Positions 22,083-48,562 of a DNA stretch of 64,000 nucleotides are shown here, piece after piece. Position 1 is the first letter of the stretch. Every line of letters starts with the position of its first letter. The stretch comes from an uncultured delta proteobacterium (GTDB lineage: Bacteria > Desulfobacterota > Syntrophia > Syntrophales > Smithellaceae): contig CAWKNI010000008.1 of assembly GCA_963851005.1 (NCBI GenBank), positions 155,199 through 219,198 on the forward strand, read 5' to 3'. The position numbers and the translations under genes are program-made. The notes below the pieces were generated by a model. It saw only the letters and a list, made by a program, of their open reading frames with translations, did not search any database and was not told the DNA's origin.

Positions 22083-22107
22083 GGGACTACCCCCAGCAAT
22101 ATTGCCA

Positions 22108-23209: not shown

Positions 23210-23316
23210 CTGTGCCTCCTTTAAAGTGTTTTTTTATTCTACACTCTAATTACTTCTGGCACAACTTGCAGGGGGAATTCCCAGTCCATCAACGCTATAG
23301 TATTCAAATTTTAAAA

Positions 23317-25625: not shown

Positions 25626-25639
25626 TACTGACTCCCTGA

Positions 25640-26662: not shown

Positions 26663-26681
26663 AATTTTCCCTTACAATTTA

Positions 26682-27530: not shown

Positions 27531-27551
27531 CTCTAGCCTCCTTAGCCTTCT

Positions 27552-28079: not shown

Positions 28080-28103
28080 GTAAACTCCATTATTTCGAAC
28101 TAA

Positions 28104-29114
28104 TTATGGGTTGTAGATAAAGTCTCCTTTATCGTGATGTTCATTGTACTTGCCAAGCGGCGGCATATCTTCCATAGAAGAACCGGCGCGGTTGCCGAAA
28201 AACTCCCAGCAATCCTTGTCGATCTTCTTGAGGAACTTGCGTAAATCAACGCCCATCGGACAAACAGCGACACAAGAACCGCAATCAACGCAACGGCCAA
28301 CCATATGATAGAGACGCATCAGTTGAAATACCTGGGTATCGGACTTGTCCTCGCCGATACCCACCCACTGCGGCTGACTCTGTTCCACAAAACAGGTCGG
28401 ACAATAACAGGAAGGACAGGCCTGACGGCAAGCGTTGCAACGCATGCACTTTTCCATTTCCTTGATGAAATACGCCCAGCGTTCTTCAATCGGTTTGGCT
28501 TCGAATTCTTTTACTTCGTTATATTCCGCGTCGGGATTCATCGCCGGAGCGTTTTGTCCGATCATGACATCGGAAATTATGGGATTATTGAACCGGCAGG
28601 TGAGGCAACTGTCCGCCAGCGCATCTTTGAGAGCAACGGTTTTATCGCCATCGGATGTTTTCATCTTAATCTGGCCGCCGTCCAGCGACCCGTCCACGAC
28701 GTCCGCGCCGCCTATAGCCACTTTCAAACCTTTGCCGTCCACATAACCATCGCAGGGAACACCGATAATCACCAATTCATCCCGACCATATTGTCTTTCC
28801 TGCAGATGAATAATCAGCGAACGGGTTGTACAGCCTCGGGCGACAACACCGATAATTTTTTTCTTCCGGTCTTCCGGCTTGACCCGCTTTTGTGAATTTT
28901 TGTGCGCGGTGATCAAATCGTGAACATACTTGGCCAGATTCTGCGTGCAGAAATTATTCCAGACAAACTTGTCGGCTTCCTCGGGCGCCGTGATAAAGCA
29001 GGGCGTTGCCGTCAACGGTAGCGTGCCTTTTTCATAACCGACGATCACGTCGGCCTTCTTTTCCAAAAGCAGTCTTTTTGCTTCTTCCCGTAATTTTGTT
29101 TCAATGTTTTCCAC
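28104..29114 (-). CDS. FlxC-like 2x[4Fe-4S] protein, paralog 2 (longer)
   Basis: 336 aa; CMRCNACRQACPSCYCPTC and CVDCGSCVAVCPMG. Confidence 0.75.
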   Translation of the reverse strand: MENIETKLREEAKRLLLEKKADVIVGYEKGTLPLTATPCFITAPEEADKFVWNNFCTQNLAKYVHDLITAHKNSQKRVKPEDRKKKIIGVVARGCTTRSLIIHLQERQYGRDELVIIGVPCDGYVDGKGLKVAIGGADVVDGSLDGGQIKMKTSDGDKTVALKDALADSCLTCRFNNPIISDVMIGQNAPAMNPDAEYNEVKEFEAKPIEERWAYFIKEMEKCMRCNACRQACPSCYCPTCFVEQSQPQWVGIGEDKSDTQVFQLMRLYHMVGRCVDCGSCVAVCPMGVDLRKFLKKIDKDCWEFFGNRAGSSMEDMPPLGKYNEHHDKGDFIYNP

Positions 29115-29152
29115 AGTGATGATTCCCCGTTTTTTATTATCTTTAAATGATA

Positions 29153-29593
29153 TTAACCAATCTTCTTAATCATCTTGTTGGCCGGTCCCAGTGCCTTTAT
29201 TTTCTCTGTAGCGCCTTTGATGACCTGTGCCCATCTGTCGCCTTCGGACGCGGAAACCCATGTAAATATGGTTCTGTCGCCTTCCACACCAATGTAGTTC
29301 AGGAAACTTTTTAACGTCGCAAACTTGCGCCGTGCCACGAGATTTCCTGAGATATAGTGGCATTCACCCGGGTGTCAACCCGAAACCAGAACGCCATCGG
29401 CTCCGGTCTGCAGGGCTTTCACTATATAAAAAGGATTTATTCTTCCCGTGCAGGGAACGCGGATGATGCGGACATTTGTCGGATACTGAATTCTGCTGAT
29501 ACCCGCCAGATCGGCTCCTGCGTAAGTACACCAGTTGCAGACAATGGCAACGAATTTCGGTACCCATTCTTTGTTTGCTAATTTTTCAGCCAT
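29153..29593 (-). CDS. mvhD: MvhD/FlxD-like protein with in-frame TGA (candidate selenocysteine at residue 73)
   Basis: Track ORFs 29375-29593 and 29153-29338 are in the same frame. Reading through TGA 29375-29377 gives [17 protein letters not shown], collinear with [17 protein letters not shown] of paralog 16599-17042. Confidence 0.75.
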
Positions 29594-29637
29594 ATATTCT
29601 CCTTACAGCGGTAATGCGGCTTTATCAGCCGTTTACC

Positions 29638-32600
29638 TTAGTTTAAATTAAATATCTGTGCCAGCACTTCTTCGTTATTGAATCCGTTGAGATCAACGGC
29701 GTTCATACGGCAGGACGCCGTGCATACGCCGCAACCCTTGCATAAAACTGTATTAACTTCAGCGCAGCCTTCCGCAACATTGACCTGAATTGCACTGTAG
29801 GGACAATTGATTTCGCAAAGACCGCAGGCCGCACATCTATCCTTATTGACATAAGCTGTTTTGCCTTCCGCCTCGATGAAATCAAGACACAGAACCATGA
29901 CGGCACGTGAAACGGCGGCGTTAGCCTGAGTTATTGATTCGTCACTGAACTTGGGCGAATGCGACATGCCGCACATAAAGACACCATCGGTCTGGAAATC
30001 AACCGGGCGCAGTTTAACGTGCGCTTCAAGGAAGAAGCCGTCCTGATTGGTAGGTACTTTCAGCATCTGGCCGATGGCTGCGTTTTCCGGATTCGGCACA
30101 ACACCAATGCTCAGAGCCACTATATCAGCAGGAAGATTTACCTTCTCATTCAGAATCGGGTCAAACACTTTGACTTCCACCTTATCTCCGGCTGCAACAA
30201 CTTCCGGTTTACGATCTTCTTCATAAGAGATAAATTTGATATTCATTTCACGCGCTTTCTTATAATAATCTTCTTTGAAAGCAAATGTCCGGATATCGCG
30301 ATAAAGGATGGTTATGTCGCGGGACGGATCGGCGGCCTTGAGTTCCAGAGCATTCTTAACCGCTTCGGAGCAGCAGTAACGGCTGCAGTAAGGCCTTTCT
30401 TTGTCGCGGCTGCCCACACACTGAATCATGACTACGTTTTTCACAGAAGCCAGTTTGGGATCTTTTTCGTAAATCAGAGTTTCAAGTTCTCTTTGTGTCT
30501 TCACACTGGCGTTTTGACCGTAGAGATATTCTTTGGGCTTGTTTTCAGAAGCGCCGGTAGCCACAATCACTATACCGTGTTCAAATACTTTCTCGCCATC
30601 CTTGACCTTGACTGTAGTCTTGTAATTTCCGATGAAACCTTCGATCTTATCGATCTTGGCGCCGGTGGCAACCGTAATCAAAGGATTTTTGTAAACTTTT
30701 TCCAGGAGGCCTTTTAAATGAGCTTGCGCATCAAGACCTTCGAGTGTTTTATAGAGATGATTGTAATTGCCGCCGAGACGGTCTTCTTTTTCCACGATGA
30801 ATGAAGCAAAACCCTGATCGGCCAGCGACAGAGCCGCGGTTATGCCTGCCAGTCCGCCGCCGATAATCAAAGCCTGATGATTGACGGAAAGCTGACCCGG
30901 TTTCAAAGGTTTCAAATATTGAGCTTTGGCTACAGCCATGCGCAGCAAATCTTTCGCTTTTTCGGTGGCTGCTTCCGGTTCGTGCATATGTACCCAGGAG
31001 TTCTGGTCGCGAATGTTGGCCATCTCGAACAGATATCTGTTCAAACCGGCCTTTTCGCAGTTTTCCTGGAACAGGCCTTCATGCGTGCGGGGCGAGCAGG
31101 ATGCCACAACAACTCTCGTGAGATCTTTTTCCTTGATAACTTCGGCCATCTTCACCGCCGTATCCTGCGAGCAGGTAAAGAGGTTATCCGCCGTATAAAC
31201 AACAGTGGGCAGTGTCGCGGCATAATCACGGACTGCCGGAACGTCAACAACACCGCCGATATTGATACCGCAGTGGCAGACAAACACACCGGTGCGCACG
31301 CCCGTGCCGCGCATATCTTTTTCTTCCGGATTATCCACCGGAGTAATCATCGTTCCGCGTCTTGAGGCCAGTAACCCTTCCGCGCAGGCGGCCGCGGCGC
31401 TTGCTTCCATAACTGTTTCGGGAATATCTTTCGGTCCGCCGAAAGCTCCGCAGACAAACACGCCGGGGCGCGAGGTCTGAACCGGATTTTCCAGTTTTGT
31501 TTTGCAGAAACCATGATCTTCAAGCTCAACACCAAGACTGGACGCCAGCTTTTTGGCTTCCTTGGGCGGCATCAAACCGACAGAAAGAACCACCATGTCG
31601 AATTCTTCATCCGTGAAGGTTCCATCCTGATTAACATATTTAATCAGCAGATTATTGGTCTGCTGCATTTCTTTAATGACTGAAGGCATTGAACGGATAT
31701 AACGAATGCCGTATTCTTCCTTGGCGCGGTTGACGAACCTGTCGAAATCCTTGCCGTGAGCGCGAATATCCATATAGAAAATTGTCGGCTCCAGACCCTT
31801 GGCGTGCTCCTTCCCGATAATTGCTTCTTTGGTTGCGTACATGCAGCAAACCGAAGAGCACCAGCTGTTGTCGCAGGAAGTGTCGCGCGAACCTACGCAT
31901 TGAATAAAGGCGACTTTCTTCGGCTCCTTGCCGTCGGATATTCTCTGAACATGGCCGAAGAAAGGACCGGATGCAGAAAGGATTCTTTCAAACTGAATCG
32001 CCGAAACCACGTTCTTGTATATGCCGTAACCGAATTCGCCGCGCAGACGCGCGTCAAATATTTCAAAACCGGGCGAAGCGATGACCGCGCCGACTTCGAT
32101 GGTTTCTTCTTCGATCGTCATATCATGGTCAATTGCCTTGGCAATACAGGCATCAACGCACTGATAACATTCGGAACAGATACCACAATTTAAACAGCGC
32201 AGCGCTTCCGCTTTGGCCTGCGCTTCATCAAAACCCAAGCCCACTTCCTTGAAGTTGGTGCGACGTTCTTCCGGCTTCATGAAGGGATATTTTTCACGCG
32301 CGACCTTAGCAACATTGGAAACATCACCCTTATCCGCCAGGTCTTTGGTCCAGTCTTTTTCGCGACCCGCCTTGATGTCTTCGCCCATGAGATAACGGTT
32401 GATGGACTTGGCCGCTTCCTTGCCGGCGAAAACAGCTTTGACGACCGTCTGGGGACCGGTAGCTACGTCACCACCGGTGAATATGCCGGCGACATTCGTC
32501 GCGTAAGTGACCTTATCGAAATCCACATTATTCCATTTATTGATGGATACGCCGCTTTCTTTGGTAATGAAAGATAAATCGGCTTCCTGACCGATGGCGG

Positions 32601-34065
32601 GAACGATAGAATCGCATTCAACTATAAATTCAGAACCCTTAATTTCGATGGGCCGGCGGCGTCCGCTCGCGTCCGGCTCGCCCAGTTCCATGCGTGTGCA
32701 CTCGATGCCGGTAACTTTTCCGTCCTTGCCCACGACGCGTTTCGGGGCAACGAGGAATTTCATTTCGATTCCTTCTTCAATGGCCTCTTCGATTTCTTCG
32801 GGTGCTGCGGGCATTTCCGCGCGGGTCCGGCGATAGAGAATAAAAACTTCCCTCGAACCGGTTCGGACAGCCGTGCGCACAGCGTCCATAGCCACATTGC
32901 CGCCGCCGACAACAGCAACCTTGTCGCCCAGGGAAACTTTCTTGCCCAGATTGATCTGCATCAGATAATCGACACCGTGAATCACGCCCTGCATATCCTC
33001 ACCGGGAATGTTGAGCTTGCTGCTCTTCATCGTGCCGCAGCCGATGAAAATCGCACTGTAATCTTTCTTAAGCTGATCAAAGGAAATATCTTTGCCGATT
33101 TTTGTATTGAGATGAATCTTCACGCCCAGGTCTTCCATGACCTTGATTTCCGCATTGAGGACTTTTTTGGGAAGACGGTATTCGGGAATGCCAACAGCCA
33201 TCCAGCCGCCGGCCACAGGCAGCGCTTCAAAAACTTCCACTTCATAGCCTTCGATGGCCAGATAATAAGCGCAGGTTAGTCCGGAAGGACCGGCGCCGAC
33301 AACGGCGACTTTCTTGCCCTTGCTTTCCTTCTTTTCAGGCAGATAACGGGTATCGCTGTTTAAATCCAGATCAGCGACAAACTGCTTCAGATGCATAATA
33401 TCGATGGGATCATCAACCTTGCCCCGCATACAGGCCGTCTCGCAGGGATGGTTGCAAACGCGTCCGCAGACGATGGGGAAAGGGTTATCCTGTTTGATGA
33501 GTTTGAGAGCTTCTTTGAATTTGCCCTGGCCGATCAACGCCACGTAGCCTTGAACGCTGATGTGAGTCGGACAATTGGCTTTACAGGGAGACGTCCCCAG
33601 TTTATCGATAGCAAAGCCGCTGGGAATGGCTTGTGGAAAGTGCCGGTAGATCGCTTTTCTTTCACTTAAATTTCCGTTGAAACCGGCCGGAACGGAAACC
33701 GGACAGACATTGGCGCAATCACCGCAGCCGGTGCATTTGTTCAGATTGACAAATCGCGGAGCGTTTGTTAATTTAACTTTGAATTTTCCAGGCTCACCTT
33801 CGACCGACTCGACAGTCCGCCGGGTTTTTATTTCCACGTTAGGATGACGCCCTACTTCAACCAGTTTTGGCGACAAGATACAGGCGGAACAGTCATTCGT
33901 GGGAAAAGTCTTGTCCAGTTGCGCCATGACGCCGCCGATACTGATCCCGTTTTCGACCAAATATACTTTCATTCCGGAATTGGCTAAATCGAGAGACGCC
34001 TGAATGCCGGCGATTCCCGCGCCAACTACCATTACCGCACCAACTTTTTCGTTATCTTTTAGCAC
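29638..34065 (-). CDS. Giant HdrA-like fusion (HdrL-type): HdrA module with inserted GltD/NfnB-like NAD(P)H module, followed by a second complete HdrA module
   Basis: 1475 aa. Module 1 has VVGAGIAGIQASLDLA..CSACILSPK. The insert has GRVCNHPCETACMRG and VVGAGPSGLTCAYYLA..GIPEYRLP. Module 1 then resumes with CVGSRD..CSSVCCMY. Module 2 has GVFVCHCGINI..IIGGGLAGITAALSLA..CVGSRD..CSRYCC..2x[4Fe-4S]. Confidence 0.85.
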   Translation of the reverse strand: MLKDNEKVGAVMVVGAGIAGIQASLDLANSGMKVYLVENGISIGGVMAQLDKTFPTNDCSACILSPKLVEVGRHPNVEIKTRRTVESVEGEPGKFKVKLTNAPRFVNLNKCTGCGDCANVCPVSVPAGFNGNLSERKAIYRHFPQAIPSGFAIDKLGTSPCKANCPTHISVQGYVALIGQGKFKEALKLIKQDNPFPIVCGRVCNHPCETACMRGKVDDPIDIMHLKQFVADLDLNSDTRYLPEKKESKGKKVAVVGAGPSGLTCAYYLAIEGYEVEVFEALPVAGGWMAVGIPEYRLPKKVLNAEIKVMEDLGVKIHLNTKIGKDISFDQLKKDYSAIFIGCGTMKSSKLNIPGEDMQGVIHGVDYLMQINLGKKVSLGDKVAVVGGGNVAMDAVRTAVRTGSREVFILYRRTRAEMPAAPEEIEEAIEEGIEMKFLVAPKRVVGKDGKVTGIECTRMELGEPDASGRRRPIEIKGSEFIVECDSIVPAIGQEADLSFITKESGVSINKWNNVDFDKVTYATNVAGIFTGGDVATGPQTVVKAVFAGKEAAKSINRYLMGEDIKAGREKDWTKDLADKGDVSNVAKVAREKYPFMKPEERRTNFKEVGLGFDEAQAKAEALRCLNCGICSECYQCVDACIAKAIDHDMTIEEETIEVGAVIASPGFEIFDARLRGEFGYGIYKNVVSAIQFERILSASGPFFGHVQRISDGKEPKKVAFIQCVGSRDTSCDNSWCSSVCCMYATKEAIIGKEHAKGLEPTIFYMDIRAHGKDFDRFVNRAKEEYGIRYIRSMPSVIKEMQQTNNLLIKYVNQDGTFTDEEFDMVVLSVGLMPPKEAKKLASSLGVELEDHGFCKTKLENPVQTSRPGVFVCGAFGGPKDIPETVMEASAAAACAEGLLASRRGTMITPVDNPEEKDMRGTGVRTGVFVCHCGINIGGVVDVPAVRDYAATLPTVVYTADNLFTCSQDTAVKMAEVIKEKDLTRVVVASCSPRTHEGLFQENCEKAGLNRYLFEMANIRDQNSWVHMHEPEAATEKAKDLLRMAVAKAQYLKPLKPGQLSVNHQALIIGGGLAGITAALSLADQGFASFIVEKEDRLGGNYNHLYKTLEGLDAQAHLKGLLEKVYKNPLITVATGAKIDKIEGFIGNYKTTVKVKDGEKVFEHGIVIVATGASENKPKEYLYGQNASVKTQRELETLIYEKDPKLASVKNVVMIQCVGSRDKERPYCSRYCCSEAVKNALELKAADPSRDITILYRDIRTFAFKEDYYKKAREMNIKFISYEEDRKPEVVAAGDKVEVKVFDPILNEKVNLPADIVALSIGVVPNPENAAIGQMLKVPTNQDGFFLEAHVKLRPVDFQTDGVFMCGMSHSPKFSDESITQANAAVSRAVMVLCLDFIEAEGKTAYVNKDRCAACGLCEINCPYSAIQVNVAEGCAEVNTVLCKGCGVCTASCRMNAVDLNGFNNEEVLAQIFNLN

Positions 34066-34918: not shown

Positions 34919-34946
34919 GTTTAGAAATAATCCTTGATTATGCTTT

Positions 34947-35072
34947 ATACCATTTCTAAATCAAAGATGATATTGAGGCGGCTAGGCGAAGGCGACGAGA
35001 CGTATTATACATACGTTGAGGAAGCCGACAACGACGCCAACAAAAATAGCGCTTTGATTTAGAATTGGTATT
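34947..35072. repeat. A-type long-hairpin repeat, copy A3
   Basis: Full unit ataccatttctaaatcaaag...ctttgatttagaattggtat; abuts the toxin gene stop. Confidence 0.9.
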
Positions 35073-35343
35073 AATAGGCATCTTTCCTCTTCACTATATC
35101 CATGATGAAAATCAATATTTGTTTTTCATCAATCTGATAAAACAAACGATATTCACCGATCCGATACCGGTATACATCTTTAAATTCACCTTTGAGTTTT
35201 TTGATATTCTTGCCAAAGAAAGGACTGATTCTTAGTTGAGGATAAACGTATGTCTTTATTTTATTATATATCTTACTGAATTCTTTTTTAGAAATGGAAC
35301 GCTGAAATGTTTCGGTCTCCGCAATTTCAAATCTATTTGACAA
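35071..35343 (-). CDS. RelE/ParE-family type II toxin
   Basis: 90 aa; ...KLKGEFKDVYRYRIGEYRLFYQIDE.QILIF..V.KRKDAY pattern; 11-nt overlap with the upstream antitoxin. Confidence 0.8.
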   Translation of the reverse strand: MSNRFEIAETETFQRSISKKEFSKIYNKIKTYVYPQLRISPFFGKNIKKLKGEFKDVYRYRIGEYRLFYQIDEKQILIFIMDIVKRKDAY

Positions 35344-35575
35344 TTCTATATTTCCCCTTCTTAATATCTTCCTTTGCTTTTCTTAATGATGAAACCAGTT
35401 CTTTGCTCCTCAATATTTCGGTCATTTCATGATCATCAACAAAAGCTTCTTCTGTCACATGAGAAAGTGTGGCATATTCGATAAAGTTTGATATTGTCCG
35501 CCTCTGCGCCTGGGCAGCCGTTCTGAAGATATCATAGGTATCGTCATCTATTCGCAATGTTATTGTTTTACCCAT
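35333..35575 (-). CDS. RHH/CopG-like type II antitoxin
   Basis: 80 aa; N-terminal beta-strand KTITLRIDDDTYD followed by helices, positioned as antitoxin. Confidence 0.7.
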   Translation of the reverse strand: MGKTITLRIDDDTYDIFRTAAQAQRRTISNFIEYATLSHVTEEAFVDDHEMTEILRSKELVSSLRKAKEDIKKGKYRIVK

Positions 35576-35826: not shown

Positions 35827-35935
35827 TATACCATTTCGATTTCAAAGGGTAACGAGGAAGGAGGAGGCTCCGCAGGCGTATATAATAATACGTTGAGGAA
35901 GCCGACGACGCTGCTAACAAAGTTAGCCAAAGACC
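35827..35935. repeat. B-type repeat, copy B2 (3' arm replaced by another module)
   Basis: taccatttcgatttcaaaggg...ggctccgcaggcgtatataataatacgttgaggaagccgacgacgctgctaacaaagttagcc, then ggaagcgcatcccgcaggggagcgca (also at 40753-40780). Confidence 0.8.
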
Positions 35936-35986
35936 GGAAGCGCATCCCGCAGGGGAGCGCATAATAAATCAAATTCTACCTTACCG

Positions 35987-36037: not shown

Positions 36038-37420
36038 CTACTCCCGCTCAAAGGTAATGCCGTATTTTTCGAGCTTCCTCTCCAAAGTCGGACGGGAGAC
36101 TCCCAATATATCGCAAATCTCCCCTTTGTTTTTATCCGTCTCTTTGATGACTTTTCTGATGTAGCGCTCTTCCACTTCATCGAGGGTCAGAAATTTGCCC
36201 GGTTCCGACGGTTTGAAAAAACCGACTGACGCATCGTCAGATATTTTAGAAGCCTCTTCCTTGCCTAGTTCGGGGAAATCACTGACTCCCAGAACCTGCC
36301 CTTTGGCCACAACACAGGCGCGCACGAGCAGATTTTCCAGTTCCCGGACATTGCCCGGCCAGTTGTAGTTCATGAATATTTCCATCATCTCTTCGGAAAC
36401 ACCGATGATTTTTTTGTGCAGATCCAAATTAATTTTGGCAAGCAAATAATCTATCAACTGCGGTATATCCTGATGGCGCGCACGCAGCGGCGGTAAGTTA
36501 ATGGCTACGATATTCAGACGGTAATATAAATCGTCGCGGAATTTTCCTTCATTAACCAAAGTCTTTAAATCTTTGTTTGTCGCGGCCATAATCCGGGCGT
36601 TAACCTTGACCTTGTCTTTCCCTCCCACTCTGTCGAATTCCATTTCCTGCAAAACACGCAGAAGTTTGGCCTGAAGATTGACGGACATTTCGCTTATTTC
36701 ATCAAGGAAAACAGAACCGAATCGCGCCAGTTCAAACTTGCCGAGTTTTCTAGCGATAGCGCCGGTGAAAGAACCCTTTTCATGGCCGAACAATTCCGAC
36801 TCCAGCAGGGTTTCGACAATGGCGGAACAGTTCACGGCAATAAAAGGTTCGTCCGGCGAAGTATTATTGTGAATTACTTTGGCGATTAATTCTTTTCCGG
36901 TGCCGCTCTCTCCCTGAATCAGCACGGTGGTGCGGCTCTGAGAAACAGTGCCGATGGTTTTGAAAATTTCCCGCATTTCATTGCCGGCGCCGATGATATC
37001 GCCGACACGGAAATTTCTTGACGGTTCCATTAAGAGTCCATCAATCCTTTTTTCCATTTCTATTGATTTCAGGGCTTTCTTAATCGCCAGATCCAGTTCA
37101 TCAACATTGACCGGTTTATGAATATAATCAAAAGCGCCGCTCTTCATTGCGTTAATGGTTGTTTCCATGTCATGAAAAGCGGTAATCATGATGACTTTGA
37201 CATTTTCATTTTCTTCCTTGAGATCTTCCAGAACGATAAATCCGCTGATATCCGGCAGGCGGATATCCAAAATGACGACATCGGATTGTTCCTGCACATA
37301 CTTATTCAAACCTTCCGTGCCGGTCAGCGCGGTGCGAACTTTATAACCTTCCTCAGTCAGATACAGATCCAGTGTCTCCGCAATCGAAGCATCATCATCA
37401 ATAACAAGAATACTCGGCAT
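36038..37420 (-). CDS. Sigma-54-dependent response regulator (NtrC family: REC + AAA+ + Fis HTH)
   Basis: 460 aa; ILVIDDD..D..LPD REC, GESGTGKE Walker A, GSFTGA (GAFTGA variant), C-terminal ICDILGVSRPTLERKL. Confidence 0.9.
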   Translation of the reverse strand: MPSILVIDDDASIAETLDLYLTEEGYKVRTALTGTEGLNKYVQEQSDVVILDIRLPDISGFIVLEDLKEENENVKVIMITAFHDMETTINAMKSGAFDYIHKPVNVDELDLAIKKALKSIEMEKRIDGLLMEPSRNFRVGDIIGAGNEMREIFKTIGTVSQSRTTVLIQGESGTGKELIAKVIHNNTSPDEPFIAVNCSAIVETLLESELFGHEKGSFTGAIARKLGKFELARFGSVFLDEISEMSVNLQAKLLRVLQEMEFDRVGGKDKVKVNARIMAATNKDLKTLVNEGKFRDDLYYRLNIVAINLPPLRARHQDIPQLIDYLLAKINLDLHKKIIGVSEEMMEIFMNYNWPGNVRELENLLVRACVVAKGQVLGVSDFPELGKEEASKISDDASVGFFKPSEPGKFLTLDEVEERYIRKVIKETDKNKGEICDILGVSRPTLERKLEKYGITFERE

Positions 37421-37434
37421 AATATTATATTACC

Positions 37435-40050
37435 TTATTCGTTATTTGTAACGGTTGAACGGGCGCTTTCGATTCCCAGAGGCAGAATTATAAGCACCTT
37501 CGTCCCCTCATTTTTTTCACTTAGAATGTCAATCGTTCCCTGGTGAATATCAATTATTTTCTTTACCAGAGAAAGTCCCAACCCGGTACCATAATTTTTT
37601 CGCGTAAAGAAAGGATTAAATATGTGCGGCATATCCTCCACATCGATTCCGCCTCCATCATCCTTAATCTCCACAACAACCGACTGATGAGTTTCATAAG
37701 CATAGCGCAGCGAAACTTTGATTTTGCCATACACCTCCGACGCCTCCACGGCGTTGCGGATAACGTTTAAAAATGCGTCAGCCATCATCGCCGCGTCTAC
37801 CGCCACGAGGGGAATATCGGCAAATTCCGTTTGCACCTCAATTTTTTTATCGCTAATCCCTTTTTCCGCCAAGGCTATGGCCTGTTCCAATACTTTGGAC
37901 AAGTCTGCCGGCGCCTTTTGGGGCTCCACCGGCTTGGCAAAAGCTAAAATGTTACTAACCAGCATTTCCAGATGGTCCACTTCTTTTTCCGCAATCTTGA
38001 ATCTTTTCAAATCGTTTCCTTCAGGGTTCATTCGTTTTGTCAATATCTGCAGACTCATTTTGATCGAAGAAAGAGGATTGCGTATTTCATGAGCTATGCC
38101 CGCCGAAAGCTGACCCAAAGCCGCCAGTTTCTGACTGTCGTAAAGCTGTCTCTCCAGATTTTTGAATTCCGTAATATCACGTTGAACCAGTATATAATGA
38201 TTGGTTCCCATCACTGGAGAGGTGGTAATCAAAAGATTATGCTTGCGGCCATCATTATCTTTTGCTTCAATTTCATACGGTTTGTAAATGCCTTTTTTCG
38301 CTTCTTCCCATTTAGAGGACACGAAATCTTCATATCCGGAAGCGACAAATTCCAAAAAATGTTTGTTTTTAAATTCACGGGAAGATGGTCCGCCTTTTTT
38401 CCTTAAACCGCGGCTCACGAAATTGATAATGCCGTTTTCATCAATCTCATAAATTTTATCCGGCAGACTGTTTACTATCGACTGCAAATAGTTATAAAGA
38501 TCTTCAATCTGACGCCGCAGTTCAATATTCTCAACCAATTCATTTTGCAGTGTTTCGGCATACTCATTTAAACTTTTAGTCATTTCTTTTTCGCGTGAAA
38601 CGTCCTGCAGTGTTTCTATTGCGGCTATAATTTCACCTTTTTCATCATAAATAGGAGCTGCCAGAAAATACAGAATCCGGCTGCGGCCGCCAAGATTTTC
38701 AAAATGATCAGTCGCTTCATAGGCGCCCAACAACTTTTCGGCTTTTTTTAATTTTTTATCGCCATAATATTTATCTAAATCTTCCACGTTTTTATCAACG
38801 ATTAAGTCAGCGATAATCGGCCTTTTAACCGAATAAAAAGGTTTATAGTGATTACTGGTGCCGAGCATTTCCCGGGCGGAATAGCCGGTGAGCTCCGTGC
38901 AGGCGCGATTCCATAATATGACCTTATGTTCATTGTTGATGACAAAACTGGGGATCGGCGAACCTTCAATAATGCCATCCATGGTTTTCTTTTCCCGCAG
39001 AAGTTTTTCCTGCCATAACTCCCGCTCCTTCAATCTTTCCTTCTCTTCTTTTATACGCAGCCTTTTCCCCTCTTTATAGGCAAAAGACATGCCTGTAACT
39101 ATAACTACTCCAATGAGCAATAATGAAACGAAAAGCGTGTAAATAAACGTTTTACGAACGGGTGAAATTACCTTATTATATGGGGCAACAACGAAAAGAA
39201 CCCATGTTTTATCTCCAGCCTGCAAAGGATAATAAGCAACTATACTTCGTTGCTGTTTTTTATCACTCTGCCGTACCATTGCTTCAAAATAATCCCCCTT
39301 TGCCGATGAAAAATCAATTTTCGCTTCCCAGTCATCGCCAAACAGATATTTTATGTTTTTTCCAATCAAAGCTGCATTACGATGAAGAATTATCTGTTGT
39401 TTTTCATCTAATAAACAAATATTTCCCCATTCATTATTCCCGGCTTGTTTTTCATATTTATCCACAACAGCCGAAAGAGAAAAAGAAATCAGCCATGCTC
39501 CGTTAAATTTGCCGTCGTGGCGCTTCAGCGGACAACCAATCACCAAATACCGGTCTATATTTTGTTTTGAATCGACATCATTTGATCGCTCCGGTAAAGC
39601 CAAACCTAAATATGGTTTTTGATTTTCCCGGATAATCTTAAAATGATCAGATAAATTTATTGCCTGGAAATTATGCCGCGGGTATATGCTCTTTATCCTG
39701 CCTTCGTCATCAACAACAACAATTGCGTTAAGAGTGCTTTCCCAGCCGGAAGACAATATTTTGTAATAACTGTTAAGTTCTTCCGGTGGTATTTGCAGGT
39801 GGCGATCAAACCGGGAAAGTAAAGAGACATTTTTTTGGACTTGCAAAAAAGTATCGGTCATTCTTGTCGCGGTATTTTGGACATTAGCAAGCTGCTGCCG
39901 GCTGAAGAACTCCACCATATCCTTTTCTCGGGCGCTGTTCACTGTCAACGCTAAAAGCAGAATCAGGATGATCACAGTTATGCTGGCCAGCCAAATGCGC
40001 GCTTCTATAGCCTTCTGAAGAATTTTATTAATTTTACTTAAAAAAGTCAC
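37435..40050 (-). CDS. Sensor histidine kinase with periplasmic Cache-like domain, PAS domains, HisKA and HATPase_c
   Basis: 871 aa; two TM segments bracket a ~270-aa extracytoplasmic domain; AHEIRNPLSSI H-box; GTGLGLSLVKKII G2 box. Confidence 0.85.
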   Translation of the reverse strand: MTFLSKINKILQKAIEARIWLASITVIILILLLALTVNSAREKDMVEFFSRQQLANVQNTATRMTDTFLQVQKNVSLLSRFDRHLQIPPEELNSYYKILSSGWESTLNAIVVVDDEGRIKSIYPRHNFQAINLSDHFKIIRENQKPYLGLALPERSNDVDSKQNIDRYLVIGCPLKRHDGKFNGAWLISFSLSAVVDKYEKQAGNNEWGNICLLDEKQQIILHRNAALIGKNIKYLFGDDWEAKIDFSSAKGDYFEAMVRQSDKKQQRSIVAYYPLQAGDKTWVLFVVAPYNKVISPVRKTFIYTLFVSLLLIGVVIVTGMSFAYKEGKRLRIKEEKERLKERELWQEKLLREKKTMDGIIEGSPIPSFVINNEHKVILWNRACTELTGYSAREMLGTSNHYKPFYSVKRPIIADLIVDKNVEDLDKYYGDKKLKKAEKLLGAYEATDHFENLGGRSRILYFLAAPIYDEKGEIIAAIETLQDVSREKEMTKSLNEYAETLQNELVENIELRRQIEDLYNYLQSIVNSLPDKIYEIDENGIINFVSRGLRKKGGPSSREFKNKHFLEFVASGYEDFVSSKWEEAKKGIYKPYEIEAKDNDGRKHNLLITTSPVMGTNHYILVQRDITEFKNLERQLYDSQKLAALGQLSAGIAHEIRNPLSSIKMSLQILTKRMNPEGNDLKRFKIAEKEVDHLEMLVSNILAFAKPVEPQKAPADLSKVLEQAIALAEKGISDKKIEVQTEFADIPLVAVDAAMMADAFLNVIRNAVEASEVYGKIKVSLRYAYETHQSVVVEIKDDGGGIDVEDMPHIFNPFFTRKNYGTGLGLSLVKKIIDIHQGTIDILSEKNEGTKVLIILPLGIESARSTVTNNE

Positions 40051-40236
40051 CTAATCTTCTTTGTCCTTTTTACCTTCTTTATGGGAAAGCTTAATGCCTA
40101 TCAAGACATAAACCAGAATTGCTGCTGTAAGTGAAATAAGAAGCTTCGCCAAACCGCTTTCAATTTTTAAAATATAAGAACAAATAAGCCATACGATGGG
40201 ATAGGTAACTGCCGTTAAAATCTCCTGCATGATCAT
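40051..40236 (-). CDS. Small two-TM membrane protein, translationally abutting the kinase gene
   Basis: 61 aa hydrophobic ORF whose stop codon directly precedes the kinase start at 40050. Confidence 0.45.
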   Translation of the reverse strand: MIMQEILTAVTYPIVWLICSYILKIESGLAKLLISLTAAILVYVLIGIKLSHKEGKKDKED

Positions 40237-40290
40237 CCTTTATTAAAAGCTTCTCGTGGGTATTTTATCATAAAGAAACATTTTTTTATG

Positions 40291-40319
40291 ATACTAACGA
40301 CCTTAACGGAAAATTTCAA
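40291..40319 (-). promoter_or_regulatory. Candidate sigma-70 promoter for the small-protein/kinase/regulator operon
   Basis: Minus strand reads TTGAAA-17 nt-TAGTAT about 55 nt upstream of 40236. Confidence 0.4.
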
Positions 40320-40360
40320 TAGAAATTAGTGAGACAAGCTGAAAACAAGTGAAACGAAGT

Positions 40361-40461
40361 TTGTCCCTGCCACCTGAAGGTGGCGGGATAATTCGCTCTA
40401 AGATTTTCCGAGCACTATGTTTCGGCGAAGTGCCCTTTGGGTGAAAATCAAGGCTCATTAA
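40361..40461. repeat. D-type repeat, copy D1
   Basis: ccctgccacctgaaggtggcgggataattcgctctaagattttccgagcac..gtttcggcgaagtgccctttgggtgaaaatcaaggctcattaa. Confidence 0.85.
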
Positions 40462-40525
40462 AGCGTAAGTCGAACTATCCCCGAAGAGAAGTGGGAAAAC
40501 GAGTCCCGATTTGTCGGGACGACGT

Positions 40526-40607
40526 TCGTCCCTGCCACCAAAGGTGGCGGGATAATTCGCTCTAAGATTTTCCGAGCACTACGTTTCGGAAAATCAAGGC
40601 TCATTAA
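40526..40607. repeat. D-type repeat, copy D2 (tandem to D1, lacks an 18-nt segment)
   Basis: ccctgccaccaaaggtggcgggataattcgctctaagattttccgagcactacgtttcggaaaatcaaggctcattaa. Confidence 0.85.
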
Positions 40608-40637
40608 TTTGCACTCAAAATTTCCTCAGAGTTCATG

Positions 40638-40876
40638 CTAGTGTGGTGTTACGCTGAAATCTTGTCATATCGACCAACGGAAGATATCTTGTATATTCTA
40701 ATGATCATTAAGATTTCTCCCCAGCAGAGCTGGACTATAGGCTTCGCTTCGATCGGAAGCGCATCCCGTAGGGGAGCGCAAAAAAAAAGATATCCTTTCC
40801 TTTTCCGAGAATCCGCATTCCGTTTGTGTGGATTCCAATGACATACTGTAAAGATATTTATGTAACACTACACTAG
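40638..40876. mobile_element. MITE-like element with 15-bp terminal inverted repeats, copy 1 (carries nested insertions)
   Basis: ctagtgtggtgttac...gtaacactacactag; interior equals the reverse complement of 43502-43635 plus ~105 extra nt; track ORF 40635-40841 lies inside it. Confidence 0.8.
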
Positions 40877-41102
40877 CAATTTTAATGTTTTATAGCAGCC
40901 TATTTAACAAAATATTAAATAAGGCCACAAATTGTGATGGTTCACAGTTTGGAAAAAATAAGTTGCTGATATTTATTCACATGAAATATTTTTTATCGTT
41001 GTATTATTAAACGAAACAATCTCAACAAATTAGATGGACATTTTTCCATAGTTACGTTCTTTAAATAAAATATTTAGAAATAACGCCTTCATGCTAAAGC
41101 CA

Positions 41103-41118
41103 TGGCATAAGTCATGCA
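41103..41118 (+). promoter_or_regulatory. Sigma-54 (-24/-12) promoter
   Basis: TGGCATAAGTCATGCA versus consensus TGGCACG-N4-TTGCW: GG and GC at the exact canonical spacing, 110 nt upstream of ATG 41228. Confidence 0.65.
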
Positions 41119-41227
41119 ATAGGTCTGCCCGAATAAAAGTTAAATTATTTCTCTTTCCCTCGACTGCTTATTTATGTTATGGAAACAAGAAGTAATAATA
41201 AACAATTTATTATGAAAGGAGATAAAA

Positions 41228-41602
41228 ATGTTACACAAATTTGGTAAAAAAATCTTAACGGCAATTACATCCGCAGCGGCTGTGCTTTTGGCAAGTCCGG
41301 TTGTATTTGCGGCAGAGGCTATTCCTTCCGGTGATCTTTCTGCCAAAGCCACTTTTGCGGTAGGAGCAATGATTGCCGCTGGTTTAGCCATTGGTATAGG
41401 AGCCGTAGGCGCAGGTTTGGGTATTGGAACAGCAGCCAGTGGAGCTTGCTCCGCGGTAGGAAGAAATCCAGGCGTTCAGGGTAAAATCATGATGACCATG
41501 CTGGTTGGTATGGCCATGGCTGAATCCATCGCTATTTACGCGCTGGTCGTTTCTCTGGTTCTTCTATATGCTAACCCTTACATGCGTTATTTTTTGGGTT
41601 AA
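41228..41602 (+). CDS. atpE: F-type ATP synthase c-subunit homolog with N-terminal signal-peptide-like extension, orphan (no atpB/atpF nearby)
   Basis: 124 aa; residues ~45-120 read GAVGAGLGIGTAASGACSAVGRNPG...LVGMAMAESIAIYALVVSLVLLYANP (c-subunit hairpin with carboxylate E); first ~30 aa MLHKFGKKILTAITSAAAVLLASPVVFAAEA. Confidence 0.85.
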   Translation: MLHKFGKKILTAITSAAAVLLASPVVFAAEAIPSGDLSAKATFAVGAMIAAGLAIGIGAVGAGLGIGTAASGACSAVGRNPGVQGKIMMTMLVGMAMAESIAIYALVVSLVLLYANPYMRYFLG

Positions 41603-41652
41603 TACTAAAATAAATTAACTACAAAATTAACAAACGTTAGGGGGAAATAGTA

Positions 41653-42966
41653 ATGTCAAAAACTAATAAAGATAAGCGGTTTTTTAATATAGGAGGAGTG
41701 TTCTTCCTGCTTATCGTAATCCCCTTATCATTAATGGCTTTCTTAATTGCCAACGGCATGTTTAAGCTGGGGGTTACCATAAAGCAGAGTACCATATCTG
41801 CTATAGACCAAAAATCTCAGGAAGATATAAGAGCTAGGGCCGTCAATACAGCAAACGAAGTTGCCAGTTTCCTCATGGAATGCAATAAAGATTTACAAGT
41901 TGCAACAATCATTCCCACAACAGAAACTGTATATAAACAGTTTGTTTCTGAAAACAAGAAACCGGTATGGGTCAAACGTGACGGTAAAATACAACAGATA
42001 TTGATTCCGCTGTACAAAGAAATGGCTTTGCTTGACAAAAACGGCAACGAAAAAATTAAAATCGTTGACGGTCAGGTTGTGCCGTCGACAAAACTGGTTA
42101 ATGTCAGCAATCCGGCTAATACAACATATAAAACTGAAGATTATTTTGCTAAGACAAAAAATCTGAATAAAGGCGAAGTTTATGTTTCCCCGGTAACAGG
42201 TTTATATGTCAATAAAGCAGCGTTTGAAAAGGGACAGAGATTTTCAGGAGTCGTCCGTTTTGCGACACCGGTATTTAATCAAAATGGCTTTGCCGGTGAA
42301 ATTATACTGTCCTTGGATTATCGTCATCTGGCAGAGTTTACCGACCATCTTGTTCCTACGCAGGCCGAGAAAGTATTTGAAACGGATGCATCCACCGGCA
42401 ATTATGCCTACATGGTGGACCACCGCGGTTTTGTAATTGTGCATCCTGCTGATTACCATATTGTTGGACTCACCCATGATGGGAAAATCGTTCCGACTGT
42501 TACGGCTCAGAACGCAACGGAACTGGCAAAGAAAGGAGCAGAAGCGTTGAACCTCTTCCAGTTGGGTTTTATGGATCCCAATTTATTTAATATTGCGAAA
42601 GACGCTGCTCAAGGAAAATCAGGAGTTTTAATGTATAAATTTGCTGGAATCAGCAAGTTCGTTGCCTATGCGCCGATCAAGTTTTATTCTTCAAACCTTA
42701 CTGCGCCTGATGGTTTTGGCTGGATAGGTCTGGGACTGGAAGTTGAGAAATATAACGAAGCGGCAATGAAGGTATCTCAGAAGATTGAGAAGGAATCAAA
42801 AGCATGGACTGCGACAGTCATCTTTATTCTTATCGCTGCCATGATTATTCTTTTCTTCATTATGCTACTTTTGGTTCGTGGAATAACCCGTTCATTGCAG
42901 GCGGAAGTTCCGGAAGGTTCGGAAGGTCCGGCATCATTTGACGATGATGACGACGACGATAAATAA
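41653..42966 (+). CDS. Membrane-anchored double-Cache-like extracytoplasmic domain protein without an output domain; poly-Asp C-terminus
   Basis: 437 aa. TM1 at ~15-37, a ~340-aa extracellular domain with Cache-like features (YVSPV..., LSLDYRHL, YAYMVDHRGFVIVHP), TM2 at ~385-410. The tail of ~25 aa ends DDDDDDDK. Confidence 0.65.
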   Translation: MSKTNKDKRFFNIGGVFFLLIVIPLSLMAFLIANGMFKLGVTIKQSTISAIDQKSQEDIRARAVNTANEVASFLMECNKDLQVATIIPTTETVYKQFVSENKKPVWVKRDGKIQQILIPLYKEMALLDKNGNEKIKIVDGQVVPSTKLVNVSNPANTTYKTEDYFAKTKNLNKGEVYVSPVTGLYVNKAAFEKGQRFSGVVRFATPVFNQNGFAGEIILSLDYRHLAEFTDHLVPTQAEKVFETDASTGNYAYMVDHRGFVIVHPADYHIVGLTHDGKIVPTVTAQNATELAKKGAEALNLFQLGFMDPNLFNIAKDAAQGKSGVLMYKFAGISKFVAYAPIKFYSSNLTAPDGFGWIGLGLEVEKYNEAAMKVSQKIEKESKAWTATVIFILIAAMIILFFIMLLLVRGITRSLQAEVPEGSEGPASFDDDDDDDK

Positions 42967-42989
42967 TTAAACTTAAAATAAATTAACCC

Positions 42990-43019
42990 AAAGGCCGAAT
43001 TTCAATTCGGCCTTTTTTT
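42990..43019 (+). terminator. Rho-independent terminator after the Cache gene
   Basis: aaaggccgaa tttcaa ttcggccttt followed by TTTTTT. Confidence 0.75.
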
Positions 43020-43168
43020 GTGAAACTCCAATTCTGCAAGCGAAGCACAGCGGAATTGGTAAGTTGAACAATCCCTGTCGCGAAGCGACATGGGATAATT
43101 CGCTCTAAGATTTTCCGAGCACTTCGTTTCGGCGAAGTGCCCTTTGGGTGAAAATCAAGGCTCATTAA
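43020..43168. repeat. D-type double-hairpin repeat, copy D3 (full length)
   Basis: gtgaaactccaattc..gaattggtaagttgaacaatccctgtcgcgaagcgacatgggataattcgctctaag...ggctcattaa; track ORF 42983-43165 lies inside it. Confidence 0.85.
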
Positions 43169-43283
43169 AAATAGAATGGACTTTAATCAAATACAATATA
43201 TAATAACTCTCATATTTATTTAAGCAAACTGCAAAAGCTTGTATTCTGTTAAGTGGACTTTACTACAAAAAAAGGAGACAAGA

Positions 43284-43478
43284 ATGAACTATTTCCCGCA
43301 TCTGATCGCATTGTTTGCAGGTGGCATTGTTCTTTGGATAATAAAAAGAAGATATAAGAAAATACGCACCCGCGAATTGATTATAGTAGTCATTCTTTTT
43401 ATTATATTAGTTGCCATCTTTACAGCTCCCGGAATGGATCTGATAAAAAAATTAATAAATCTTATTCAAGTAGAGTAA
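43284..43478 (+). CDS. Small two-TM membrane protein
   Basis: ATG 43284 after aaggag; 64 aa MNYFPHLIALFAGGIVLWII... Confidence 0.45.
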   Translation: MNYFPHLIALFAGGIVLWIIKRRYKKIRTRELIIVVILFIILVAIFTAPGMDLIKKLINLIQVE

Positions 43479-43501
43479 CTGACGCCTGTGTAATAGCTAT
43501 C

Positions 43502-43635
43502 TAGTGTAGTGTTACATAAATATCTTTACAGTATGTCATTTCGAAGCGAAGCGAGAAATCTTAATGATCATTAGAATATACAAGATATCTCCCGTTGGTC
43601 GATATGACAAGATTTCAGCGTAACACTACACTAGG
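43502..43635. mobile_element. MITE-like element, copy 2 (134 bp, inverted relative to copy 1)
   Basis: ctagtgtagtgttac...gtaacactacactag perfect 15-bp TIRs; contains an E-type module. Confidence 0.8.
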
Positions 43636-43692
43636 TATAAAAATTTTGTTAAACGCGTTTTCATGTTCATATTTTGATGTGGATTGAGTGAA

Positions 43693-43947
43693 ATGAAGGG
43701 TTACCTGATAGGGAAAAAACCAAAGGAAAACCGTGAGAAGTTCAACTCTCTCGGCGGCATAATGATGTTATCGGCCTGGGGGCTGGCGATGGTGTTGTCT
43801 TCTTTCCTGTTTCTTTATATCGGTTATCTTGTGGATGAACTCCTGGGAACCACACCTAATTTCATGCTGTGTTCTTTTTTTCTGGCAGTCGGTCTCTGCA
43901 TATGGCGGATTTATAAGGAAGCAAAGGAAAAAGGTAAGAATTTATAA
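43693..43947 (+). CDS. AtpZ/AtpI-family small membrane protein (ATP synthase gene-1 type)
   Basis: Two-TM protein with SAWGLAMVLSSFLFLYIGYLVDELLGTTPNFML..FFLAVGLCIWRIYKE, the AtpZ pattern; ATG 43693 preferred over TTG 43684. Confidence 0.6.
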   Translation: MKGYLIGKKPKENREKFNSLGGIMMLSAWGLAMVLSSFLFLYIGYLVDELLGTTPNFMLCSFFLAVGLCIWRIYKEAKEKGKNL

Positions 43948-44078: not shown

Positions 44079-44085
44079 AACAGGC

Positions 44086-44459
44086 TCTGGAGAAGATCGT
44101 AAGCCGAGTTCTGTCCCGCGCTTCGGTTACCCTACGTGCGGTGATGATCATTCATCTGGGACATCAGTTGCCTGCTGCCTCAAGCGACACTACCCGAGAA
44201 CATCAGGCGGGCCGCCCTTAAACGTTCTCCTATTTGGTCTTGCTCCGGATGGGGTTTACCATGCCTTTCCTGTCACCAGCAAAGCGGTGAGCTCTTACCT
44301 CGCCTTTTCACCCTTACCCGGCATTCGCCGGGCGGTATATTTTCTGTGGCACTTTCCTTAGGGTCGCCCCCAGTCGCCGTTAGCGACCATCCCGCCCTGT
44401 GGAGCTCGGACTTTCCTCCAGCAGATAAATTCTGCCGGCGATCATCTGATCTTCTCCGG
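44086..44459 (-). ncRNA. rnpB: RNase P RNA, bacterial type A
   Basis: Minus strand reads GGAGAAGAUC...GGAGGAAAGUCCGAGCUCC...GGAAAGUGCCACAGAAAAUAUACCGCC...GGGUAAGGGUGAAAAGG..GGUAAGAGCUCACC...GGUAAACCCCAUCCGGAGCAAGACCAAAUAGG...ACAGAACUCGGCUUACGAUCUUCUCC. All universal P4/J-region blocks are present and P1 pairs 5' GGAGAAGAUC with 3' GAUCUUCUCC. Confidence 0.95.
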
Positions 44460-48499: not shown

Positions 48500-48538
48500 G
48501 CTGCCAACAAAAATAGCGCTTTGATTTAGAATTGGAAT
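48500..48538. repeat. A-type repeat, 3' fragment (A5)
   Basis: gctgccaacaaaaatagcgctttgatttagaattggaat. Confidence 0.7.
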
Positions 48539-48562
48539 AATTTAAAGAGGAATTTTTTTGCT

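Follow-up and report, generated by a model that had tools for sequence, protein, structure and literature searches.

Why should a bacterium place a gene for a rotor subunit of its ATP synthase behind a putative sigma-54 promoter, next to a sensor-like membrane protein and apart from the main genes of the enzyme? This question is raised by a locus in a stretch of 64,000 nucleotides (the window) on contig CAWKNI010000008.1, from an uncultured member of the Smithellaceae. The locus comprises a two-gene unit, c1 and gene 2, which is divergent from the genes of an NtrC-type two-component system. The c1 gene encodes an F-type ATP-synthase c-subunit precursor and gene 2 a double-Cache (dCache) membrane protein, which is 96% identical to an NCBI protein named "Smithella sp.". 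An earlier note, made from the sequence alone, had described six elements here: a near-consensus −24/−12 promoter; a terminated two-gene unit about 110 nt beyond it; a leader-bearing c-subunit with no atpB or atpF beside it; a two-helix Cache-like protein that has no output domain; an opposite-strand operon of a small membrane protein, a Cache/PAS kinase and a sigma-54 activator; and an AtpZ-like gene about 0.7 kb downstream, without atpB. All six are found where that note placed them (Table 1). On balance, we lean towards reading c1 as a conditionally expressed alternative c-subunit and gene 2 as a partner directed at it.

The c1 gene encodes an F-type c-subunit with all the rotor hallmarks. 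Its product scores 66.1 bits against PF00137 (cut-off 24) and 46.7 against TIGR01260 (cut-off 43.95), while no organism-specific NCBIfam equivalog reaches its cut-off. The mature hairpin carries GAVGAGLGIG in helix 1, an RNP loop (R79-N80-P81) and E99-S100...Y104, which are invariant among c1 orthologues and align residue for residue with solved c-subunits. The nearest solved relatives are the c-subunits of Acetobacterium woodii, Spirulina and chloroplasts, the best being the 4BEM chains. By inspection, the leader is 28 residues long (MLHKFGKK, then ILTAITSAAAVLLASPVV, then V-F-A|AEA) and is a putative Sec-type signal peptide. The residues F27-A28-A29 are conserved in all lineages, and the cleavage context reads FAA, then E or D, then A. 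Neither Pfam annotation nor a motif scan finds atpB, b or F1 genes in the window.

The pairing of c1 with the Cache gene is conserved across two classes. For comparison, 80 species-level Smithellaceae loci were retrieved from GTDB representative genomes with the gene-2 protein, and metagenome loci were added; the comparison as a whole covers about 170 related loci, cited here by L numbers where they need to be told apart. Loci outside the family were found by searching with the more distant of two output-less clusters of gene-2 relatives and tracing the contigs that encode the proteins. We found a leader-bearing c-subunit of 120-125 amino acids directly 5' of the Cache gene in the Desulfomonilia (L085, L087 and L089) and in Syntrophus sp. 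SKADARSKE-3 (L086). In the Desulfomonilia pair, the Cache protein is 38% and the c-subunit 52% identical to those of the window. The leader, cleavage context and mature core of c1 are conserved in both groups. Counting all loci, 104 c genes have a Cache gene no more than 450 nt downstream.

The genes around the pair are not constant. Its Desulfomonilia neighbours are a type II secretion system-type ATPase, PHO4 and Rnf genes, and its Syntrophus neighbours are Band_7 and PPDK. In none of these four loci does a sigma-54 two-component system adjoin the pair; an OmpR-type kinase and regulator found two genes upstream in L089 are unrelated. Because the pair persists while flanking genes and regulators differ, the constant unit is, as gene order indicates, the c-subunit with the Cache protein, and the two-component system was probably added within the Syntrophales.

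Two minor observations concern this unit. In the Desulfomonilia, some 180-200 nt separate c1 from the Cache gene (L085, 9819-10000; L087, 9804-10000), against about 50 nt in the Syntrophales, and the longer gap holds a stem-loop (GACCCGT...ACGGGTC) that may act as an attenuator and so fix the protein ratio. Pyruvate phosphate dikinase (PPDK) recurs beside c1-Cache, or c1-Cache-c2, in Syntrophales other than Smithella (L086, 11647-14058; L088, 11441-13843; L171, 6773-9481).

The relatives of the window carry a second c gene, c2, at a canonical Fo locus. Scanning metagenome contigs with a c-subunit alignment gave 80 further loci. The c2 genes lack a Cache partner, and 52 of them form one neighbour-joining clade. 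On 17 contigs, c2 lies 3-8 kb from atpB (PF00119 at 175-183 bits), on the opposite strand. The order at L173 and L174 is AtpZ (PF09527), AtpI (PF03899), atpB, three unrelated genes and c2, followed by an RF-1-like gene, an ACT-domain gene and the gamma, beta, alpha and delta subunits of a 2-oxoacid:ferredoxin oxidoreductase. NCBI names the c2 clusters "ATP synthase F0 subunit C [Syntrophales bacterium]" and "[Syntrophus sp.]". Eight contigs (L119, L128, L129, L132, L133, L141, L171 and L172) carry c1, Cache and then a convergent c2. A published gene list shows the same two loci: that of Ca. Smithella cisternae M82_1 has atpB as 4_23 and "subunit C" twice, as 4_31 and 437_33, with 2-oxoglutarate:ferredoxin oxidoreductase as 4_34-36 and MvhD, ferredoxin and Hdr as 437_40-42 (PMC5606693, Table S9). 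Thus, 4_31 reproduces the synteny of c2 and 437_33 the Hdr/Mvh neighbourhood of the window. The earlier note had allowed that c1 might be the only c-subunit of the genome, separated from atpB by rearrangement. This reading was rejected, as relatives have c2 at the canonical locus together with c1. Since c2 sits at atpZ-atpI-atpB and coexists with c1, c1 is the extra copy, and homology and synteny indicate that it is supernumerary in the window's own genome as well.

Although c1 and c2 both match PF00137, they are 47-56% identical to each other and differ in helix 1. Leaders and all rotor hallmarks are present in both. Helix 1 reads GAVGAGLGIGTA in c1 (GATGAGSGMGAA in the Desulfomonilia) and GTIGTGIGMGNG in c2, whose alternating run thus includes one extra Gly and whose Thr replaces an Ala of c1; the packing motif is accordingly GAxGAGxGxGxA in c1 and GTIGTGxGMGxG in c2. 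Elsewhere, c1 tends to KIM and ESI, and c2 to KIL and ESL. Gly/Ala changes in the helix-1 motif alter ring stoichiometry in Ilyobacter and alkaliphilic Bacillus. The helix-1 differences therefore suggest that c1 and c2 may form rings of different size. The Na+ signature is incomplete in both, with Ile/Met at the Gln32-equivalent position and Ile/Leu after Glu-Ser.

The upstream regions of c2 have no sigma-54 motif. In L133 (11956-12560, − strand), and also in L132 and L141, the conserved leader of c2 is long and contains, immediately 5' of the ribosome-binding site, a perfect hairpin, GAGACATGTGACATGTCTC, which may be a separate regulatory element of the housekeeping c-subunit. A sigma-70-like pair, TTGACA ... 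TAGAAT, lies further upstream in L133, to which we give little weight as its spacing is ambiguous.

The promoter of the c1-Cache unit is conserved in position across the Syntrophales. In TGGCATAAGTCATGCA, GG and GC stand at the canonical spacing (10 nt apart) within a TGGCAC-N5-TTGCW-like context, and 109 nt separate the motif from the ATG of c1. It is the sole exact match to TGGCAY-N6-TGCW in the window. As 0.69 matches per window are expected by chance, this single occurrence proves nothing alone, and the case rests on conservation. Of the 79 Smithellaceae loci that include the region, 78 have the motif 120-145 nt 5' of the c-subunit ATG. More distant Syntrophales share it (L086, as TGGCATGTCTGTTGCA; L088; L090), as do several metagenomic Syntrophales contigs. 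Its position relative to the c1 ATG is fixed over about 90 loci, and it is nearly the only match per 21-kb locus. The family consensus is TGGCAY-N6-TGCA, with no exception to GG and GC and a six-base spacer that drifts (AAGTCA, ATCTCG, GTATAA and others). The motif is absent from the corresponding position in the Desulfomonilia loci.

Two further blocks are conserved upstream of this promoter. In an alignment of 72 distinct upstream regions, we found an inverted repeat with the family consensus AATGTTTT-N17-AAAACATT, whose columns are at least 95% conserved and which, in 57 loci, precedes the promoter by 206-224 nt. This palindrome is a candidate binding site of the activator. Between it and the promoter lies a conserved TCAA-N4-TTA block, which by its resemblance to the consensus would be an IHF-like site. 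Together with the −24/−12 element, the two blocks make up a textbook enhancer-dependent promoter layout, from which we infer activator binding and RpoN dependence. The 110-nt leader of the transcript is conserved only patchily. A known RNA regulator in it was considered and rejected: at the Rfam gathering threshold, the window yields only RNase P RNA.

The divergent two-component system accompanies the pair throughout the Smithellaceae. The regulator has an intact Walker A motif (GESGTGKE) and a GSFTGA loop, and regulator and kinase have the domains of an NtrC-family system (REC, AAA+ and HTH; HisKA and HATPase_c). Regulator orthologues are 84-97% identical (76% in L081) across the Smithellaceae loci that cover the gene. 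The kinase operon is led by a gene for a 61-aa protein, whose stop codon abuts the kinase start codon; the protein has no Pfam or NCBIfam match and is 58-95% identical in every kinase-bearing locus. In every Smithellaceae locus covering the region, these three genes are divergent from c1-Cache. The same arrangement is found in distant Syntrophales (L088, L090, L128, L130, L133, L141, L143, L169 and L171), in which the Cache protein is 55-62% identical. The earlier note had proposed that the two-component system activates the c1-Cache pair. The conserved five-gene order, the promoter, the palindrome and the IHF-like site all point to this, and the regulatory proposal is well supported by their co-conservation.

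As a regulatory layout, this is ordinary for the NtrC family. The DctB/DctD-dctA unit likewise has a kinase with a periplasmic double-PDC/Cache sensor, a REC/AAA+/HTH activator and a divergent target with a −24/−12 promoter, an upstream palindrome and an IHF-like site between them. However, the target of Dct is a transporter, whereas here it is a c-subunit with a sensor-like protein, and here an additional 61-aa membrane protein leads the kinase operon.

Gene 2 encodes a sensor fold that has no output domain. It consists of a first transmembrane helix, a double-Cache ectodomain (about residues 50-365), a second transmembrane helix and a cytoplasmic tail of 26 residues that ends DDDDDDDK; this tail is all that follows the second helix. 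An AlphaFold2 model (37-sequence alignment; pLDDT 83, pTM 0.74; tail disordered) has a long N-terminal helix, two PDC modules and a second long helix. Foldseek matches its ectodomain to solved double-Cache domains of kinases and chemoreceptors at E-values of 2e-11 to 1e-7, among them the Vibrio kinases 3LID and 2P7J, Mlp24, TlpA and PctA. The dCache_1 profile (PF02743) stays below its threshold of 45, at 38.4 bits (44.1 for the L133 orthologue). A possible origin as a duplicate of the neighbouring kinase's sensor was rejected, as BLASTP detects no similarity between the two.

We searched 1.8 billion representative proteins for homologues of gene 2. Most relatives at 30-50% identity are proteins of 500-1200 aa with HAMP, HisKA/HATPase, MCPsignal, GAF or SpoIIE outputs. 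Output-less proteins, of about 435 aa, make up just two of the 50%-identity clusters, and both end in acidic residues (DDDDDDDK, DDLYDDEEEK or DEDEEDRD); the acidic tail is kept at 38% identity. Because the output-less clusters sit among longer, output-bearing relatives, gene 2 is evidently a sensor that lost its transmitter.

An AtpZ-like gene lies downstream of the pair, where its product matches PF09527 above the cut-off. Since the canonical Fo locus already includes a PF09527 gene, that of the window is a second, distinct copy. Across the Syntrophales, the AtpZ-like gene is found near the c1 locus, either downstream of the Cache gene or beyond EngB. The 64-aa protein encoded between gene 2 and the AtpZ-like gene matches no family; by tblastn it is conserved at 48-83% identity in most Smithellaceae loci, and its gene lies beyond EngB in other Syntrophales. 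This second AtpZ and the 64-aa gene stay close to c1 across the Syntrophales, which speaks for a place of the locus in ATP-synthase biology and against an unrelated proteolipid function.

These features are consistent with the following mechanism. The dCache/PAS kinase, possibly with the 61-aa protein, would sense a signal and phosphorylate the NtrC-type regulator. The regulator would bind the palindrome about 220 bp upstream and, with the DNA bent at the IHF-like site, activate sigma-54 RNA polymerase at 41103-41118. The transcript would run to the terminator at about 43020 and encode the c1 precursor and the dCache protein, and the c1 leader would be removed at VFA|AEA. The c2 gene beside atpZ-atpI-atpB would supply the ordinary rotor ring, in which c1 would replace or mix with c2 under particular conditions. 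The dCache protein would act on c1, either by helping this particular ring to assemble or as an accessory subunit that responds to a ligand, and not through kinase signalling. A direct relation between the Cache protein and c1 is favoured by three points: their adjacency is the sole constant over two classes, the acidic tail could reach the basic RNP/K86 crown of a c-ring, and the ectodomain could reach the mature N-terminus of c1, which is unusually long and has an invariant Lys. Still, the biochemical role of the Cache partner is the weakest link of this reading.

Several observations weigh against an alternative c-subunit with a dedicated partner. A neighbour-joining tree of this short protein has no single c1 clade, and the Desulfomonilia c1 falls outside c2 and the Syntrophales c1. 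At an 80% threshold, no position separates c1 from c2 in all three groups. Judged by the tree and by the search for c1-specific residues, the c1 genes of the Syntrophales and the Desulfomonilia, and with them the pairing, may or may not share one origin. At L142 (3746-6456), EngB and the regulator are divergent from a c1 gene with a sigma-54 motif, and the kinase, 61-aa and Cache genes are all missing; c1 can therefore exist without its Cache partner, and the loss of the Cache gene coincides with that of the kinase. For the window's own genome, of which 64 kb of a 574-kb contig was read, the presence of c2 is deduced from relatives. Furthermore, the Cache-linked c gene of the Desulfomonilia could be their sole one, in which case the pair would be housekeeping there.

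The L142 locus also fits a different role for gene 2, in which the Cache protein assists the neighbouring kinase as a co-sensor, in the style of YycH/YycI with WalK, and feeds back on its own operon, with c1 a mere target. We regard this as unlikely. Gene 2 is a truncated member of a family with kinase, chemoreceptor or HAMP outputs, and a vestigial "RGIxRS" after its second transmembrane helix looks like the start of a HAMP-like helix. Like YycH/YycI, it is a membrane-anchored, sensor-like fold that has no output and lies, in the Syntrophales, beside a two-component system; a WalK-YycH model is among its fold matches (rank 47). Unlike YycH/YycI, however, its constant neighbour is the c-subunit and not the kinase, and the pairing persists in the Desulfomonilia and in the Syntrophus metagenome-assembled genome, where no sigma-54 two-component system adjoins. 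The sensor domains of gene 2 and the kinase are also unrelated in sequence, although contacts between their transmembrane helices could still occur.

It is less probable still that c1 is an ordinary housekeeping c-subunit among scattered atp genes, as in Aquifex, with the Cache gene as an unrelated passenger that chance or common regulation retains in the operon. The atp genes of Smithella are indeed dispersed, with F1 and b subunits on one contig, atpB on another and c genes elsewhere (PMC5606693). Moreover, c1 is present and highly conserved in all 80 species-level Smithellaceae loci, and in the Desulfomonilia it could be the only c gene. Yet a housekeeping rotor subunit would not usually be under enhancer-dependent sigma-54 control, a separate c2 occupies the canonical locus and coexists with c1, and the c1-Cache adjacency is kept over two classes while every flanking gene changes. 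A membrane device independent of F1Fo, such as a proteolipid ring gated or assembled by a Cache-bound ligand, seems to us very improbable. The pair does behave as a self-contained two-gene module, its partner has a ligand-binding fold, and no atpB, b or F1 gene lies within 10 kb of c1 in the roughly 170 loci. But c1 keeps all rotor residues and its similarity to c2, and an AtpZ-like gene, of a family otherwise belonging to atp operons, is linked to it across the Syntrophales. We know of no bacterial F-type c-subunit with a function independent of F1Fo. Of the two functions that the earlier note had offered, a conditionally expressed alternative c-subunit fits better than a free ion-conducting proteolipid.

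Parts of this arrangement have precedents in other rotors. Leader-bearing c-subunits are known already: Zhang and colleagues reportedly described in 2013 (FEBS J) a cleavable N-terminal signal peptide on the F1Fo c-subunit of Aquifex aeolicus. As predicted here for c1, the Aquifex c-subunit is reportedly made as a precursor with a Sec-type leader, and its atp genes too are spread over several loci; here, however, both paralogues bear a leader, and neither a dCache partner nor sigma-54 control is reported for Aquifex. Multiple c genes for one F1Fo are known from A. woodii, whose c1 and c2/c3 form a hetero-oligomeric ring (PDB 4BEM). Those genes lie inside the atp operon and are co-expressed, and the A. 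woodii c1 is a duplicated hairpin with one ion site, whereas the c1 described here is a normal hairpin with its carboxylate, encoded away from the atp genes, separately regulated and paired with a non-ATPase partner. N-ATPases (TIGR03322, AtpQ/AtpR) likewise bring a second c gene into a genome, with a PF09527-family small membrane protein nearby. Here, only c is duplicated, with no second atpD, C, B, F, A or G, and the Na+ signature lacks Gln/Glu at the helix-1 position and has Ile for Thr after Glu-Ser. An N-ATPase c-subunit was rejected as an identity for c1, which scores 71.2 bits against TIGR03322 (cut-off 130.85) and has no second atp gene set.

Membrane proteins tied to a proteolipid ring offer an analogy for gene 2, and only that. 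UncI/AtpI acts in bacterial c-ring assembly, while the V-ATPase subunits Voa1, ATP6AP1 and ATP6AP2 have luminal domains and place helices within the c-ring. The features in common with gene 2 are a short cytoplasmic tail, a genetic or physical tie to the ring and, in the V-ATPase subunits, a large extracytoplasmic domain. None of these rotor-ring accessories has sequence or fold kinship with gene 2, whose ectodomain is a dCache sensor fold.

Four things appear to be new: a stand-alone paralogous c gene, its enhancer-dependent control, its invariable pairing with an output-less dCache protein and the conservation of the pair over two classes of Desulfobacterota. In the literature searched, we found no report of sigma-54 control of atpE or of c-subunit/Cache pairs. 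Each reaction yields Smithella and Syntrophus only fractions of an ATP, and their ATP synthase works both ways, so that the ion-to-ATP ratio, set by c-ring size, is central to them. A separately regulated second c-subunit would be a testable way to change this ratio, and a c-subunit partner with a sensor fold in the membrane would add a new type of accessory factor to the enzyme. More speculatively, the locus could work as a gear shift between two ring isoforms of one F1Fo, a constitutive c2 ring and a c1 ring induced through sigma-54 and the two-component system, whose different helix-1 packing motif could alter ring size and with it the H+/ATP ratio; the dCache protein would be a ligand-sensing accessory subunit or an assembly factor of the c1 ring. 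We are doubtful of this extended form; if true, it would be an environmentally controlled gear shift in syntrophic Desulfobacterota living near the thermodynamic limit. In current annotation and metabolic models, both c genes are listed as an interchangeable "subunit C", and the Cache gene as a generic hypothetical protein or sensor. The locus also provides a clean, conserved sigma-54 unit, with palindrome, IHF-like site and promoter, in an uncultivated group.

Table 1. Coordinates of the c1-Cache locus and adjoining features in the window; open reading frames (ORFs) of the region were assigned by Pfam and NCBIfam profiles
Feature	Position	Strand	Evidence
NtrC-family response regulator, GSFTGA loop	36038..37420	-	PF00072 (REC), PF00158 219 bits, PF25601, PF02954 (HTH_8, Fis-type)
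Sensor histidine kinase	37435..40050	-	periplasmic dCache, PAS domains, HisKA, HATPase_c (Pfam)
61-aa two-helix membrane protein, first gene of kinase operon	40051..40236	-	ORF
Insertions (~100-nt repeats and an element like a miniature inverted-repeat transposable element, MITE)	40365..40878	.	genome-specific, outside the system
Candidate activator-binding site, inverted repeat AATGTTTT-N17-AAAATATT	40884..40916	+	conserved alignment block
IHF-like site TCAA-N4-TTA, between palindrome and promoter	41022..41032	+	consensus resemblance
Putative sigma-54 (−24/−12) promoter TGGCATAAGTCATGCA	41103..41118	+	motif and conservation; predicted transcription start near 41130
c1, F-type ATP-synthase c-subunit precursor, 124 aa	41228..41602	+	PF00137, TIGR01260
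Gene 2, output-less dCache membrane protein, 437 aa	41653..42966	+	transmembrane-helix count, AlphaFold2 model, Foldseek
Intrinsic terminator of the two-gene unit	42990..43021	+	11-bp stem (42990-43015), 5 G-C pairs, 4-nt loop, T-run
64-aa two-helix membrane protein	43284..43478	+	tblastn conservation
AtpZ-like protein	43684..43947	+	PF09527 35.1 bits (cut-off 26.6)
Bacterial RNase P RNA class A	44085-44457	-	Rfam RF00010, 326 bits

Repeats flank the c1-Cache unit in the window. A repeat of about 100 nt is present in three direct copies (40365-40462, 40529-40607 and 43072-43169), with a partial copy at 35932-35968. A 243-bp MITE-like element with 28-nt terminal inverted repeats lies at 40636-40878, and a shorter inverted copy at 43498-43637. 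Together, both families bracket the unit. The ~100-nt repeat also has copies at the matching intergenic positions in a few relatives (L007, L009, L026 and L038); both families are absent from most orthologous loci. A recently mobilised cassette was considered and rejected, as about 90 loci without the flanking repeats conserve both the pair and its promoter.

Other features of the window lie outside this system. The RNase P RNA stands between the AtpZ-like gene and rpmH-rnpA-yidD-yidC-jag-mnmE. A toxin-antitoxin-like pair, in which a ParE-family toxin (PF05016, 30.6 bits) follows an 80-aa antitoxin-like ORF (35071-35575, − strand), forms an insertion between EngB and the response regulator that most orthologous loci lack. 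Two copies of a 1.2-kb insertion sequence (4141-5341 and 22083-23283) are 99.9% identical and encode identical rve/rve_3 integrase-core proteins, with shorter related fragments at 127-278, 34922-35073 and 48503-48543. At 58026-60124 (+ strand), a tyrosine recombinase (Phage_integrase) is followed by an IS91-family Y2 transposase.

The window is also rich in genes for electron transfer. Two paralogous Hdr/Mvh/Flx-like electron-bifurcation clusters (13696-20571 and 24786-34065) encode HdrA-like, CCG-domain, MvhD/FlpD, Fer4_22 and NAD-binding/DHODB Fe-S proteins, and one of the two includes a 1475-aa fusion of HdrA-like and GltD-like modules (29638-34065). The gene at 11386-13614 is for an aldehyde:ferredoxin oxidoreductase. 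Four large TPR proteins are encoded at 9242-11068, 50873-52732, 55833-57797 and 60913-62781.

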